The notes below the pieces were generated by a model that ran no database searches, was not told the origin of the DNA, and worked only from the letters and a program-made list of their open reading frames with translations. The position numbers and the translations under genes are program-made. Shown piece by piece: positions 4,615-52,640 of a stretch of DNA of 58,409 nt. This DNA is from Candidatus Hermodarchaeota archaeon. Its GTDB lineage: Archaea; Asgardarchaeota; Lokiarchaeia; Sigyniarchaeales; SOKP01. The number at the start of each line of letters is the position of its first letter. Within the stretch, counting starts at the first letter, position 1. The DNA lies in the NCBI GenBank assembly GCA_048885525.1, contig JBHLLP010000021.1, positions 1 to 58,409 on the forward strand. Reading direction: 5' to 3'.

Positions 4615-4998
4615 ATGATTAAATCAATCTTGGTTTGTGATTCTCAGGGTTATCCGTTCTATTCCAAGAAGTTTGATCCAAATATGGAGGAGATAGATCC
4701 TACGATTTTTAGTGGTTTAATATCAGCTATCGGAGCTATTGGGAAAGAATTATTTAAAGAGGAAATTGCTACTATTTCTTATGGTGAGAAATATGAAATA
4801 ACGATTGTTACGAGAGAACTACTTGGGGATCAAAAGGTTATTTATTTTGTTTTTTTAGTTGAGGGGGTTCCTGATCTTAAATTAATGAAACAACTAAGTA
4901 CCAATATATTTATCGAAACTAAGCATGTGTTAAAAGATCCCTCTGCTGCAAAGTTGGATATTAAGGAAAAGGTAGATCGAATATTGGCAAATATATAA
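4615..4998 (+). CDS. Longin/roadblock-like domain protein
   Basis: ILVCDSQGYPFYSK...IDPTIFSGLISAI pattern typical of Asgard longin-like proteins. Confidence 0.65.
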   Translation: MIKSILVCDSQGYPFYSKKFDPNMEEIDPTIFSGLISAIGAIGKELFKEEIATISYGEKYEITIVTRELLGDQKVIYFVFLVEGVPDLKLMKQLSTNIFIETKHVLKDPSAAKLDIKEKVDRILANI

Positions 4999-44094: not shown

Positions 44095-44931
44095 ATGAAA
44101 CTATATAATATTAGTGATAAAGGGGAATTAATCAAGATAGATAAATTGTCTTTTAAAGAGAATGATGTATATCTTGTTGATGACGAGGTAAAAAATACTA
44201 TTTATATTTGGGTGGGTTTAGAGGTACCCCAAATAAAAAGGGATATTGTTGCAGAAACTGCTAGAAAGATTGATAAGGAACGCGGTGGATCAGCCAAAAT
44301 CTTGATCATGAAACAAAAAAGAGAATACGGTTCATTTTTAGCTATGATGCATGATCTTGAAAGAGGGCTAATACCGGGTAAAACAATTGAAAGAAGGCCA
44401 GAATTTGTATTAAAAGCTCCTCCTGAAAGGATAAAATTTGTTAAACTTGATGGAACTCCTGAAGAGCGAGATCAAACGGTTGAAACAAGGATATTGGAAT
44501 GGCTTCAACAAATTAAGATGCATCGAAGCGATATCCCCGTGGAAAAGCTAAAAGAAGCTACTGAAGCTGTTAAATTCGTTAAGTTTGAATCGACTCCAGC
44601 TAAAGTTGAAGTGAAACCCATGGAACAAAAAAGAGTTGAAATAAAAGAAGAGCTACCGGAAGAACCAGATTTTAAAACACAAATTAGGGAGGCGGCTTAT
44701 TATCTTTCAAAAGATCAATATACTTACGATCAACTCTGCTGGATTTTAGCCGAAAAAATTCAGAAAATAAATCTCGATATGCCCTCTATTGAAGATATTA
44801 GGAGTAAGGCAGAAGAAGTCTTCAATTCTAGTTGTACATATGATGAACTCTGTTGGTTAAATGCAGAGATGGATATCTTGACTAAAAGAAGCTTTCTTGA
44901 ACAGAAAAAGAGAAAGATGTTTGATTATTAA
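44095..44931 (+). CDS. Gelsolin-domain protein with C-terminal duplicated helical domain (1DGelX-like)
   Basis: DVYLVDD...IYIWVG gelsolin core; repeated YDQLCWILAE / YDELCWLNAE. Confidence 0.78.
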   Translation: MKLYNISDKGELIKIDKLSFKENDVYLVDDEVKNTIYIWVGLEVPQIKRDIVAETARKIDKERGGSAKILIMKQKREYGSFLAMMHDLERGLIPGKTIERRPEFVLKAPPERIKFVKLDGTPEERDQTVETRILEWLQQIKMHRSDIPVEKLKEATEAVKFVKFESTPAKVEVKPMEQKRVEIKEELPEEPDFKTQIREAAYYLSKDQYTYDQLCWILAEKIQKINLDMPSIEDIRSKAEEVFNSSCTYDELCWLNAEMDILTKRSFLEQKKRKMFDY

Positions 44932-44970: not shown

Positions 44971-45267
44971 TTATCCACAACAACTATTGTTCTGTGGGTT
45001 TTTCGCTACTGCGCGTGCATTCCATAAGCACCCACAGCCTTTTCGCTCTTGTAATATGATTGCCATAGTTGGACAATTCTTTTTACAAGCAGAACATTCT
45101 GTACAGCGTTCTGGTTCATAGATCTCATACTTTCCTTCATGATTAAGATTTGGTATTCCAAATGGGCATACTTCTCCACATATTCCGCACCCCGTACATA
45201 AATCGGAATTTATCGAGATTTTTGGAATAACAATTGGTATCTTAATTGATGTTGTTTTTAATGTTAT
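44971..45267 (-). CDS. HgcB-like 2x[4Fe-4S] ferredoxin with C-terminal CC; apparent ATA start
   Basis: Manual translation: CTGCGICGEVCP...CTECSACKKNCP...KGCGC...NSCCG*; AGGTGAT RBS 5 nt before ATA, with an in-frame TAA two codons upstream. Confidence 0.85.
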   Translation of the reverse strand: MTLKTTSIKIPIVIPKISINSDLCTGCGICGEVCPFGIPNLNHEGKYEIYEPERCTECSACKKNCPTMAIILQERKGCGCLWNARAVAKNPQNNSCCG

Positions 45268-45337
45268 TTTTTATCACCTTTTTTTCCACTAATTATAGTA
45301 TTTTATTCTCAAATATATTTTGTTTTGTTTTAAAATA

Positions 45338-47011
45338 TTAAAAAAATATAAATCCAATACTTTTAGCTAAAAGTCCAATTATCAATAAAATTAGATTTAT
45401 TTTACTGAAAATGGGATACTCATCTTGAATTTCTCTAGGACTGGTTGCCATGGTATAACCACTAAACGACATCGTTGAGAAAAATGCTAGCCAAAAATAA
45501 AAAATACTACTCAGAAGAATAGATTGCAGCGAGTAGTGAAAAAGCCAAGAAAGCCCACCGAACAATAAAACATTCATAACTCCAAAAATAATACCTTTAC
45601 TGATAAATTTCCGTGTAAAGTTCGTTATGGGGAATAATATCGCGACAAGTGCGTTAGATATAATAATCCAGAGCCAAAGTTCACCTACAATCCACAATCC
45701 TTTTATCCATATAGTATTAATGAAACTTAACCCTAAAAATAGCAAAAATAGGACGATACTTGGCCAAAGAAAGATTTTTCGAAGTAAAAATGTTGTATGC
45801 GTGATTTCTGCTCGAAAACGATGCGATATTGTAAATTTTGCTAATTTCATTTTATCGGGTTTTCGAGCCGGACGTTCTTCTAAGAATTGAGGTAGATATT
45901 TAGCCCATACTGGACCATATAAAATGTTAAAAGGAAAATTTGGGGCCTCAGCTTTTATCAGTGGTGCTGCTATTCCCCCTGCAGAGAGTTGTGGTACAAT
46001 AATTGTCTTTTTATTAGTGATATTTGCTATACCTGAAGCTTCAACTGCCTCTATTAATTGTTTATTTCCAAAATTATTACCTCGTGCAGCACACCAAACA
46101 TTTATACCTCTAGAATCAACACATAATACCCAAGCATCTAATCCTTTAAGAGCACGCATCACTTTAATATAGGTATAAACATAATTAGCAGTTACAATAA
46201 TAGGTGAAGATTCATTGGGATTACCAGATTGATAAATTCCTGGTTCAATTGGTACGTGATCAGTTTGTCCAGTAAATATACAGCGATAAATACTCATTTG
46301 AGCACTAAAACCTTTAAATTTTCTTACTCTAGGTCGATAATATCCAGGGTTATCTAAATCGTGAATTTTTTTTATTTCAATTACTTGAATTGATCCATGT
46401 CGCCATTTCTTTATTGCTGAAATTTCAAACCCAATAGGGGCCAAATAATCAAAAAACCATTTCACTAAAAATGTACTTTCTAGTTTAAGTCTTCTTAATT
46501 TCTTTTTATACCACCTACGTTTAATATTGAACCATAGTTTCCAGAAACCTGAGGGTATAAATTCTGCTGCGATTATCATTCGACCATTAGGTTTCAAAGC
46601 TTTCCATGCATTTCTAAGAAAGATTTGCTGTTCAAAGGGTTTAAGTTCTGAAAGCATAAATGTACTAACTATGAGATCTTTGGAGCCATCCTCAACAGGC
46701 AGATCATTAACGGTACCTATCTGATACAAAAGTTTAATGTCTGATTCAGAGGGATAATTTTTCATAGCAGTGGTTATCATTCTTTGATTTTTATCTATAG
46801 CTATAACATCATTTCCTTTGAGTGCCATTTTTACTGCAAGAATCCCCGTTCCGCAACCTACTTCAAGGATTTTCTCTTGTGTATTAACTCGTTCTAATAT
46901 CCAATCATTTATTTCTTTATTTGCTCCTTTTGTAAGAGCTGTGAATTTTGATTCATATGACTCAGGTTCTAATTCTAGCTTTCGCATGTACACTACAGCG
47001 ATGTCATTCAC
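45338..47011 (-). CDS. SAM-dependent methyltransferase fused to HgcA-like corrinoid-binding and transmembrane domains
   Basis: ILEVGCGTG MTase; PGIY..GNP...SPIIVTANY, GINVWCAARGNNFG, PQLSAGG, YGPV; TM helices ending MSFSGYTMATSPREIQDE. Confidence 0.88.
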   Translation of the reverse strand: MNDIAVVYMRKLELEPESYESKFTALTKGANKEINDWILERVNTQEKILEVGCGTGILAVKMALKGNDVIAIDKNQRMITTAMKNYPSESDIKLLYQIGTVNDLPVEDGSKDLIVSTFMLSELKPFEQQIFLRNAWKALKPNGRMIIAAEFIPSGFWKLWFNIKRRWYKKKLRRLKLESTFLVKWFFDYLAPIGFEISAIKKWRHGSIQVIEIKKIHDLDNPGYYRPRVRKFKGFSAQMSIYRCIFTGQTDHVPIEPGIYQSGNPNESSPIIVTANYVYTYIKVMRALKGLDAWVLCVDSRGINVWCAARGNNFGNKQLIEAVEASGIANITNKKTIIVPQLSAGGIAAPLIKAEAPNFPFNILYGPVWAKYLPQFLEERPARKPDKMKLAKFTISHRFRAEITHTTFLLRKIFLWPSIVLFLLFLGLSFINTIWIKGLWIVGELWLWIIISNALVAILFPITNFTRKFISKGIIFGVMNVLLFGGLSWLFHYSLQSILLSSIFYFWLAFFSTMSFSGYTMATSPREIQDEYPIFSKINLILLIIGLLAKSIGFIFF

Positions 47012-47101: not shown

Positions 47102-47188
47102 TTAACTACAACAATCTTCACGTGATTGAGTTTCTTCTTTATCCTCTTTTGCTCCTTCGGAACAACAAGCTTCTTCTTTATTTGCCAT
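47102..47188 (-). CDS. 28-aa double vicinal-Cys peptide (MANKEEACCSEGAKEDKEETQSREDCCS)
   Basis: Manual translation; GAGGGA RBS upstream; first ORF after the operator. Confidence 0.7.
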   Translation of the reverse strand: MANKEEACCSEGAKEDKEETQSREDCCS

Positions 47189-47230
47189 TTTTATTCCCTC
47201 TTCATTTTTTAATTAAGAATTGTTAATATT

Positions 47231-47286
47231 TAGTTAGGAAGCTAACTATTTAAATGTTTCGTTCCTTATAATTAACTTCCTAACAA
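47231..47286. promoter_or_regulatory. Two operator-like inverted repeats flanking a TATA-like box
   Basis: TAGTTAG-GAAG-CTAACTA (47231-47248, perfect 7-4-7) and a 15/18 match in reverse orientation at 47269-47286; TTTAAAT at 47249-47255. Confidence 0.7.
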
Positions 47287-47328: not shown

Positions 47329-47793
47329 CTAAGGAATTAAAGAATTTAGGAGTTTCTGGAGCAATTCGGCTAATTTTTCTATCTCTCCCTTACTGATTTC
47401 AGGACAACATCCATTTACTATTGATTCTAAAGGAGGAGTTTCTATTTTTAATTTTTTTCCTTTGTTTGTGAGTTTAACGAGCATACTTCTTCGATCTTCT
47501 GGGTTTGAGTCACGAAAAACCAAATCTTTCTTTTCCATCGTATCTACAACCCCTGTAATTGTAGATCTTGAACAATTACATGACTCTGCTAAATCTTTAA
47601 ATTGTTGGCCATTAGATCTCCATAATTCTCTTAGAATAAAATGTTGAGTTGGAGTGAGTTCTAGTTCTTGAATGTTATCCCGTTGTAATTTTTCATATTT
47701 TTTATTTAAAATATTAATAAGTTCGAACACTTCAACTATATTTTTAGGGGGACAGCAATTGTTATCTGATTCTGTTGTTTCTTTTTTACTCAT
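47329..47793 (-). CDS. MarR-family regulator with Cys pairs
   Basis: LTPTQHFIL, RSTITGVVDTMEKKDLV.R, DRR, LTNKG; NNCCPP, SCNCS, GCCPE. Confidence 0.9.
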   Translation of the reverse strand: MSKKETTESDNNCCPPKNIVEVFELINILNKKYEKLQRDNIQELELTPTQHFILRELWRSNGQQFKDLAESCNCSRSTITGVVDTMEKKDLVFRDSNPEDRRSMLVKLTNKGKKLKIETPPLESIVNGCCPEISKGEIEKLAELLQKLLNSLIP

Positions 47794-52073: not shown

Positions 52074-52640
52074 CTATGATTTTAGTTTTTTTAGTAAATG
52101 CGCAAAATTTTTACCTAAATTTTCAAATGTTATAATACCTTCTTCATCATCTAATACTTCTCCTGGATTTTTTCCAATGCCTAAATTCCAATAAGAAGAG
52201 CCTACTACAAACATCTGTTTAATGAGAAAGAAGTAATTAATACTAGAGAATACATGATTCGCACCAGCTCTCCTCACTGCCACAACTGCAGCACCAACTT
52301 TATGTTTTAAGTGTCCTCCAGTAGCATATCCGGCACGTTCTATCAAAGCTTTTGTACTAGTAGTTAAATCTGAAAAATATGTAGGTGAACCTATAATAAT
52401 TCCATCAGCTTCAAGCATCTTTTGAATATATTCATTCATATTATCACCTTCAATAGTACATCTTTGGTCATCGTTATCAATACATTGACGACATGCGGTA
52501 CATCCTTGCAATCTTTTAGCACCGATCCATATTATTTCACACTCAATTCCTTCGGCCTCCAATTGCTCCAATACAATATTTAAACAATGGTATGTATTTC
52601 CCTCTTTTCTAGGGCTTCCATTAAATAGTACAACTTTCAA
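52074..52640 (-). CDS. Iron-sulfur flavoprotein / flavodoxin-like FMN reductase
   Basis: GSPRKEGNT, CTACRQC...C, GSPTYF. Confidence 0.9.
   Translation of the reverse strand: MKVVLFNGSPRKEGNTYHCLNIVLEQLEAEGIECEIIWIGAKRLQGCTACRQCIDNDDQRCTIEGDNMNEYIQKMLEADGIIIGSPTYFSDLTTSTKALIERAGYATGGHLKHKVGAAVVAVRRAGANHVFSSINYFFLIKQMFVVGSSYWNLGIGKNPGEVLDDEEGIITFENLGKNFAHLLKKLKS

Follow-up and report, generated by a model that had tools for sequence, protein, structure and literature searches.

An Asgard archaeal fusion of a CpaM-type methyltransferase domain with an HgcA-like corrinoid protein

What does an S-adenosylmethionine (SAM) methyltransferase domain do on the same polypeptide as a corrinoid protein that resembles the mercury methylation protein HgcA? 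The question is raised by a gene on contig JBHLLP010000021.1 of a Candidatus Hermodarchaeota archaeon (assembly GCA_048885525.1), which we analyse over its full length of 58,409 nucleotides (the window). The gene lies on the minus strand at positions 45338–46987, directly before a gene for an HgcB-like ferredoxin. Judged by its domains, relatives and operon settings, the product would be a single-chain, membrane-anchored methyltransferase of three domains that, together with the ferredoxin, moves a methyl group from SAM to a Co(I) corrinoid and on to arsenite or a similar metalloid, a reading to which we give slightly better than an even chance.

The fused gene and its domains

Positions 45338–47011 of the minus strand form an uninterrupted open reading frame (ORF) of 557 codons from GTG 47011, the longest in its neighbourhood. 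This GTG is the mechanical start of the ORF, from which residues are numbered here. Conservation in 118 aligned homologues sets in at M9, encoded by ATG 46987, and homologues start there too. Therefore, the true start is probably ATG 46987, which gives a protein of 549 residues. In accordance, the gene call at an orthologous locus (L001; related loci carry L numbers) opens at the equivalent ATG. Pfam detects Methyltransf_25/11 at residues 48–147 (E 2e-16; 60.7 bits for Methyltransf_25) and CdhD (PF03599) at residues 239–344 (E 4e-13).

The ORF is not a chance product, given its size of 1.67 kb in DNA of 29% GC, E-values down to 1e-50 against profile hidden Markov models (HMMs), and the recurrence of this architecture in over 120 independent assemblies. 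The probability that the fusion arose by faulty assembly, or is a pseudogene fusion in decay, is negligible. The neighbouring hgcB-like gene does carry a one-nucleotide indel in this assembly, which speaks for such an origin. Against it, over 120 clusters (NCBI, JGI, ENA and Logan) show the architecture without interruption, among them the complete chromosomes CP070831.1 and CP070761.1, the active-site residues are invariant, and the structure model is confident. The artefact reading is thus effectively refuted already.

The methyltransferase domain (residues 9–215; 46367–46987, minus strand) is of class I and of CpaM type, as judged from the NCBIfam model NF043040 ('corrinoid protein-associated methyltransferase'), motif alignment, invariant columns and Foldseek. 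The NF043040 match covers residues 6–214 and model positions 2–215 of 216 with 143.5 bits, which is below the cut-off of 180; other fused subfamilies, unlike the Asgard fusion, reach this cut-off. Residues G52, G54 and G56 of motif I (GxGxG), D73 after strand 2, E122 and E150 remain invariant in an alignment extended to distant fusions. In an alignment of 10 true stand-alone CpaM proteins with 13 fusions, the fused domain keeps the motifs specific to CpaM, namely the N-terminal M..LE..P..Y, SEL, (A/D)E..P, R and T.P. Foldseek returns class I methyltransferases with template-modelling scores up to 0.78 (normalised by target length), and the structural neighbours are small-molecule enzymes: phosphatidylethanolamine N-methyltransferase, UbiG and TehB-like proteins. 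A helix inserted between strands of the domain (residues 157–174, ~46490–46543) is strongly basic in the Asgard fusions (KLWFNIKRRWYKKKLRRLKL), and the equivalent helix of free CpaM is hydrophobic (R.PL..LT.LLTQ). The basic helix may contact the membrane or another domain.

The corrinoid-binding domain (residues 253–395; 45827–46255, minus strand) is of the type found in HgcA and in the corrinoid iron–sulphur protein (CFeSP). It matches PF03599 with 49.3 bits (cut-off 24.8), and Foldseek and PDB searches agree; the matches to the large subunit of CFeSP (2h9a, 4c1n and 9fzy) have E-values of 1e-8. When residues 253–548 are compared with NCBIfam, the HgcA model NF040863 gives 171.2 bits (172.8 in a genome search; cut-off 275) and the HgcAB-like fusion model NF043039 gives 174 bits (cut-off 285), with E-values of ~1e-50. 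The NF043039 match spans model positions 14–275 of 350 only. The protein ends after the fifth transmembrane (TM) helix without a fused C-terminal 2x[4Fe-4S] domain, and the ferredoxin is encoded by the separate downstream gene.

The cap helix of the corrinoid domain reads NVWCAARGN (residues 304–312; 46076–46102, minus strand), and the putative cobalt-ligating residue C307 is encoded by TGT at 46091–46093. The codons for INVWCAARGN at 46076–46105 are ATA AAT GTT TGG TGT GCT GCA CGA GGT AAT. NVWCAARG is invariant in 121 of 121 close homologues, and every fused subfamily in the alignment keeps N304, V305, W306 and C307 without exception. The TM domain (residues ~395–556; 45341–45826, minus strand) consists of five predicted helices according to hydropathy, alignment with canonical HgcA and the AlphaFold2 (AF2) model, which places them at residues 395–429, 433–463, 469–492, 495–519 and 525–556. 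It contains the HgcA-type motif MSFSGYTMATSPREIQDEY (residues 514–532; 45416–45472, minus strand), aligned with the MNFTGST-type segment of canonical HgcA. In particular, the C-terminal TMSFSGYTMATSPREIQDEY matches the canonical AMNFTGSTPYTSPSGVEKEM column for column, at an overall identity to canonical HgcA of 25–28%.

The AF2 model, built from a 56-row alignment, shows a Rossmann domain and, after an ordered linker, the corrinoid domain, followed by five long helices (mean predicted local distance difference test score, pLDDT, 92.1; predicted template-modelling score 0.87). Its best PDB match in Foldseek is the HgcAB model 9a0b_A (E 3.8e-14, 336 columns, 26% identity); class I methyltransferases rank next. 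The original prediction, made by eye from the letters of the window, had described a class I methyltransferase domain in frame with an HgcA-like domain, a cap helix that keeps its cysteine while AGKG becomes ARGN, and a C-terminus resembling the MNFTGST segment of HgcA. All three descriptions agree with the Pfam and NCBIfam matches along one ORF, the codon reading at 46091–46093 and the alignment with canonical HgcA.

Relatives, distribution and the boundary to canonical HgcA

A search of 5.8 billion proteins returns 388 homologues. The best 120 all show the two-domain Pfam pattern and are 62–86% identical over ~99% of the length. They come from metagenome-assembled genomes of the Promethearchaeota/Loki, Thor, Hod, Heimdall and Hermod lineages and from complete chromosomes, and NCBI names them simply 'methyltransferase domain-containing protein'. 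Matches occur in 137 of the 301 Asgard genomes sampled and in 58 of the 68 genomes of the GTDB family to which the window belongs. Such conservation indicates that the architecture is under strong constraint across Asgard archaea. Many Asgard genomes hold, in addition, a second, paralogous HgcAB-like system, including some of the window's own genus (loci L111–L114; genomes G201, G263, G008 and G087). Its cap helices read NVWCGACG.. or NVWCASCGKN, and its CpaM is fused (L114, ~650 residues) or lies out of the same frame. The window's own genome shows a single system, of the AARG type.

With the methyltransferase domain alone as query, a word-index search yields nothing but fragments from the same fused family; the stand-alone forms were revealed by an exhaustive HMMER search. 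The relatives are of three kinds. There are other fusions of a methyltransferase to an HgcA-like protein, in which NVWC is kept and the following residues vary (AARG, GAGAGR, AAGGGH, AASEGT and others); triple fusions of CpaM, HgcA and HgcB, which pass both NCBIfam cut-offs; and stand-alone proteins of 210–227 residues, which are true CpaM (235–298 bits, cut-off 180). In all three informative contexts, a free cpaM gene lies directly upstream of HgcAB-like genes. The two genes overlap by 4 nucleotides in L024; the ORF downstream of cpaM bears NVWCAAAGGH in L108; and in L109/L110 a 400-residue HgcAB-like gene (356 bits) follows cpaM in L109, flanked by two ArsR regulators, CzcB, a cation diffusion facilitator transporter, thioredoxin and a P-type ATPase. 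Because free CpaM adjoins HgcAB-like genes and triple fusions exist, the Rosetta-stone relation proposed at the outset, which ties a SAM methyltransferase to an HgcA-type corrinoid protein, is genuine, and the search for split forms beside hgcA-like genes that was suggested as a check comes out positive.

The same proposal held that canonical HgcA has no Rossmann methyltransferase domain. In accordance, the domain is absent from all of the canonical loci (NVWCAAGKGT), more than 60 in number, that a scan of species-representative genomes finds in Desulfobacterota, Bacteroidales, Spirochaetota and Nitrospirota. In a 58-row tree, obtained by a quick search without an outgroup, canonical HgcA forms one clade of 24 rows on a long stem (Shimodaira–Hasegawa-like approximate likelihood-ratio test, SH-aLRT, 100), every methyltransferase-linked form falls outside it, and the AARG proteins of Loki and Thor form a group of their own. 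Capo et al. define high-stringency HgcA by the cap motif N[V/I]WC[A/S][A/G/S]GK and HgcB by C(M/I)ECGA, and moderate stringency by a bit score of at least 100 (PMC10087281). The Asgard fusion shares with canonical HgcA the Trp before the conserved cap-helix Cys (equivalent to Cys93) and the five-TM C-terminal domain. It falls short of the NF040863 cut-off, reads NVWCAARG in place of the cap motif and lies outside the canonical clade. By these marks it is not canonical HgcA.

By its motifs and profile matches, the Asgard fusion belongs to the superfamily of CpaM and HgcA(B)-like proteins. This association is already catalogued in NCBIfam and hence is not categorically new. The modules are the same in the catalogued family, namely a CpaM-type methyltransferase, a corrinoid and TM domain with a Cys cap and a 2x[4Fe-4S] ferredoxin, as are the CpaM motifs, the NVWC core of the cap, the lack of a GK motif and the position outside the canonical HgcA clade. 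The arrangement differs: in the Asgard protein CpaM is joined to HgcA and the ferredoxin is separate, whereas the catalogued family has HgcA and HgcB on one chain and CpaM as a protein of its own. The Asgard AARG proteins also form their own clade, with the signature NVWCAARG, with both domain scores below all family cut-offs and with operon settings of their own, of ars type or with a MarR regulator and a CC peptide (a small peptide with vicinal Cys pairs). The fusion itself is not described in any paper of the literature that we searched. Lin et al. placed Loki and Thor sequences in a fused-HgcAB subtree and cut the first 327 'poorly aligned' alignment columns (PMC10083202), a step by which the methyltransferase domain would be hidden.

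Operon setting, proposed mechanism and alternatives

The HgcB-like 2x[4Fe-4S] ferredoxin gene (44971–45277, minus strand) contains a GCGC motif and a C-terminal SCCG, and its best NCBIfam match, NF040864, gives 55 bits (cut-off 99). Its motif reads CTECSA where canonical HgcB has C(M/I)ECGA. A ferredoxin gene lies downstream of the fusion in every subfamily checked, distant ones included, and 10 of 12 related loci inspected carry an intact orthologue (MVKI..., ~101 residues). In the window, one extra A in the run at 45267–45272 puts the gene in another frame than its GTG start (45275–45277), and there is no in-frame start. The orthologues open with GTG (G/A)TA AAA ATA ACA, and the window reads GTG ATA AAA A ATA ACA. 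The run has six A's in the window and five (L016 and L018) or AAAG (L014) in orthologues, and L017 of a sister genome also has an indel there. The extra A may have arisen as an assembly error in the homopolymer, may be a genuine mutation that inactivates the gene, or may mark a site of ribosomal slippage. An ATA start was considered and rejected, since the orthologues open with GTG and this copy differs from them by the one extra A.

The orthologues of the fusion are set among arsenic genes. Both acr3 and the fusion could be placed in 35 same-family genomes, and in 18 of these acr3 precedes the fusion by no more than ~1 kb, in the same orientation. A divergent ArsR-type regulator is found in 17 of 20 additional same-family loci (L117–L136), 10 of the 20 holding acr3, and also in L115 and L116, where it carries DRCVCELE with its CVC motif and scores ~70 bits on NF033788 (cut-off 55). 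Thor fusions come after an ArsR with the motif DACVCEV. A bona fide ArsM (347 bits, cut-off 263) is encoded directly upstream of the fusion in L116, and an ArsM-like gene (found by phmmer; GLGCGNP motif) lies upstream in L130. Some ars-type loci also hold a DUF166-like gene, an FMN reductase or a Cys-rich protein of 91–129 residues. This Cys-rich protein (CC pairs and VPLDACACEW; for example L116 7149–7538 and L115 1615–1890) follows the hgcB-like gene at 11 of the 22 loci that belong to the same family but not to the MarR/CC-peptide clade (L115–L136); it matches no Pfam or NCBIfam family and is not part of the window's cassette.

In a Thor-rooted tree, the MarR/CC-peptide clade that includes the window (SH-aLRT 99) is nested among ArsR/Acr3-linked lineages, and its sister is L130, a locus with the order MarR, ArsM, DUF166 and fusion. 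By this placement, the window's cassette is a derived subclade in which the ancestral ArsR/Acr3 setting was apparently exchanged for a MarR with CC pairs and a CC peptide. The view that the MarR/CC cassette is unrelated to arsenic was rejected as the leading one, because the clade is nested among ars-linked orthologues. An acceptor other than that of canonical HgcA had been suggested for the fusion from the start; the operons with ArsR, Acr3 and ArsM now back this suggestion, as do the low HgcA score, the divergent cap motif and the place outside the canonical clade, the cap-helix Cys and the TM domain being the HgcA features that are kept.

In the mechanism that we propose, the ferredoxin would first reduce the Cys-ligated corrinoid to Co(I). 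The CpaM domain would then bind SAM and methylate the cobalt to CH3-Co(III), acting as an 'MT1' loader. The methyl group would finally pass to a thiophilic metal or metalloid, presented at the membrane domain by the Cys pairs of the ferredoxin tail and, in this genome, perhaps also by those of the 28-residue CC peptide. The acceptor would most likely be arsenite or a related metalloid and not Hg(II). Zheng et al. (2024) demonstrated SAM to be the methyl donor of canonical HgcAB, with a Cys-ligated CH3-Co(III) as the intermediate (PMC11588087); a SAM-derived methyl group fits the fusion because SAM methylates the canonical corrinoid, and here we infer what has been shown for HgcAB. The two systems share, in addition, the cap-helix Cys, the five TM helices, the MNFTGST-type motif and a downstream ferredoxin with extra Cys (NF040863/NF040864; Parks 2013), whereas the fusion has an N-terminal methyltransferase domain, a cap with AARG in place of A(A/G)GK, a partner with CTECSA and an arsenic context.

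Other known systems resemble the proposed one in part. The large subunit of CFeSP (AcsC/CdhE) has a homologous corrinoid domain (PF03599) and, with MeTr, a separate methyltransferase as the corrinoid loader; it differs in that the donor is methyltetrahydrofolate via a TIM-barrel methyltransferase, the cobalt has no Cys ligand, and the protein is soluble with an Fe-S domain of its own. Reactivation of MetH by SAM and flavodoxin likewise has a SAM-binding module and a low-potential electron carrier that serve one corrinoid. The SAM domain of MetH has a different fold and is used for repair only, whereas the domain here is a class I Rossmann enzyme and probably the catalytic donor. ArsM, which shares operons with fusion orthologues (L116 and L130), is also a class I SAM methyltransferase; it differs in having the As-binding cysteines that the fused domain lacks, and any arsenic methylation by the fusion would run via cobalamin.

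Several observations weigh against transfer of a methyl group from SAM through the corrinoid to arsenite. If the frameshift of the hgcB-like gene is real, the cassette may be inactive in this genome. The acr3 gene of the genome lies on another contig (C1:77696), and no ars gene is found among the ORFs of at least 100 residues at 38–54 kb of the window, of which the cassette-adjacent ones were scanned against Pfam. Where ArsM is already present (L116 and L130), a second arsenic methylase seems redundant. We know of no class I methyltransferase that methylates corrinoid cobalt. Predicted docking of the methyltransferase domain to the HgcA-like part is weakly supported: as separate chains the two give an ipSAE interface score of 0.42 (best control 0.00), with partner pLDDT of at least 75 and at least 96% of contacts in agreement between runs. 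The docking mark is reached by 58 of 80 solved complexes and by 2 of 110 mismatched pairs, and the passes at 0.60 or below comprise 7 of those 80 and both mismatches. Lastly, canonical HgcAB, when purified, uses SAM although it has no methyltransferase domain (PMC11588087); a dedicated loader is therefore not strictly required, and the domain could have another role.

One such role is repair. SAM and a low-potential electron donor are the recipe by which MetH, the cobalamin-dependent methionine synthase, is reactivated. The methyltransferase domain and the ferredoxin could accordingly serve only to remethylate inactive Co(II) reductively with SAM, while catalysis shuttles methyl groups between other partners, as in anaerobic demethylation of methylarsenicals, or uses a donor other than SAM. 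A non-redundant role of this kind, such as the handling of methylated arsenic, would make sense of the ArsM beside the fusion in L116 and L130. We nevertheless regard it as unlikely: no genes for MT1- or MT2-type methyltransferases are conserved in the cassette, whose constant parts are only the CpaM domain, the HgcA-like part and the ferredoxin, and in canonical HgcAB SAM is the catalytic donor (PMC11588087). Alternatively, the methyltransferase domain could methylate the final acceptor straight from SAM in the manner of ArsM or TehB, leaving redox chemistry, transport or sensing to the corrinoid and membrane part. Its small-molecule structural neighbours and weak generic matches to ArsM-family models point that way. 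However, the ArsM model NF008823 gives 41.8 bits against a cut-off of 263, and As(III)-binding cysteines of ArsM type are absent, the motif I Cys being the only conserved one in residues 1–225. Moreover, CpaM is fused to or beside an HgcA-type corrinoid protein in every readable context, which suggests that the corrinoid is the substrate of CpaM, and direct methylation is accordingly improbable.

The fusion could also be a functional mercury methylase, a true HgcA orthologue with an extra domain, in which case Asgard archaea would be overlooked producers of methylmercury. The full HgcA architecture (Trp-Cys in the cap helix, five TM helices and the MNFTGST-like motif) and the downstream HgcB-like partner with its GCGC motif and terminal CC are those expected of such an enzyme. 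The score of 171 bits on the HgcA model would probably lead surveys at moderate stringency (at least 100 bits, PMC10087281) to count it, and Asgardarchaeota are listed as putative methylators (PMC12484752). Yet the score stays below the cut-off of 275, neither the cap helix nor the CTECSA of the partner conforms to the HgcA and HgcB motifs, the fusion lies outside the long-stemmed canonical clade, and the genomic context is arsenic, not mercury. In addition, tested organisms with related fused HgcAB produced no methylmercury (PMC4646819, PMC10087281). We hold this reading to have a small chance at most, and surveys of hgcA by HMM bit score alone, which will probably count the Asgard fusions as mercury methylators, are likely wrong in doing so.

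Methyl transfer from SAM via the corrinoid to a metalloid remains the preferred account. A wider proposal is that the Asgard CpaM::HgcA-like/HgcB-like system is a second, cobalamin-dependent route of As (or Sb) methylation, charged by SAM through a fused loader and distinct from ArsM, that this is the native, pre-mercury function of the HgcA family, and that canonical HgcAB was derived from it by loss of the loader. This we put forward tentatively, as a possibility that we would sooner expect to fail than to hold. The fusion family, present in close to half of the sampled Asgard genomes, offers an explicit SAM-binding domain covalently joined to an HgcA-type corrinoid protein, and bears on the native function of the HgcA family and on how SAM reaches the HgcA corrinoid. 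With it, the idea that 'HgcA is really about arsenic' (Gionfriddo et al. preprint) gains a concrete, expressible test system.

Neighbouring genes and minor observations

The window's cassette is headed by a gene for a MarR-family regulator (47329–47793, minus strand; PF01047, 63.2 bits) with two CC pairs (NNCCPP and NGCCPE), and such a regulator is kept upstream in the closest loci. Between this gene and the fusion lies a gene for an acidic peptide of 28 residues with two vicinal Cys pairs (47102–47188, minus strand). Nine of the 12 related loci that were compared encode conserved CC peptides of 27–38 residues. In this position, acidic peptides of that length with two or three vicinal Cys pairs occur in the MarR-type clade only (for example L001 4804–4887). 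The CC peptide may carry the substrate, serve as a metallochaperone or act as a leader peptide. The palindrome TAGTTAGG-N-CCTAACTA lies between the MarR and CC-peptide genes (window ~47225–47250) and is kept in the orthologous locus of a complete genome (L001 ~4730–4750); it is a probable MarR operator, as judged from its position and form.

Genes for FMN_red-family flavoproteins lie directly upstream of the fusion in some orthologous loci (L020 3396–3983; L127) and ~5 kb away in the window (52074–52640, minus strand). These flavoproteins may be an electron donor to the ferredoxin. On the other side, a gelsolin-repeat protein (PF00626, 27.5 bits) is encoded at 44095–44931 of the plus strand, convergent with the cassette, and the synteny is kept in CP070831.1. 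The gelsolin-repeat gene, one of the 'eukaryotic signature' genes of Asgard archaea, accords with the window's Loki origin.

Among the canonical loci, the hgcB ORFs of several Desulfobacteraceae (L041, L044–L046, L048, L053, L054, L058 and L094) stop at ...V(S/N/T)PGVG after 72–80 residues. These short ORFs are consistent with a read-through TGA, that is, with the selenocysteine 'GVGU' HgcB listed in PMC13188914.

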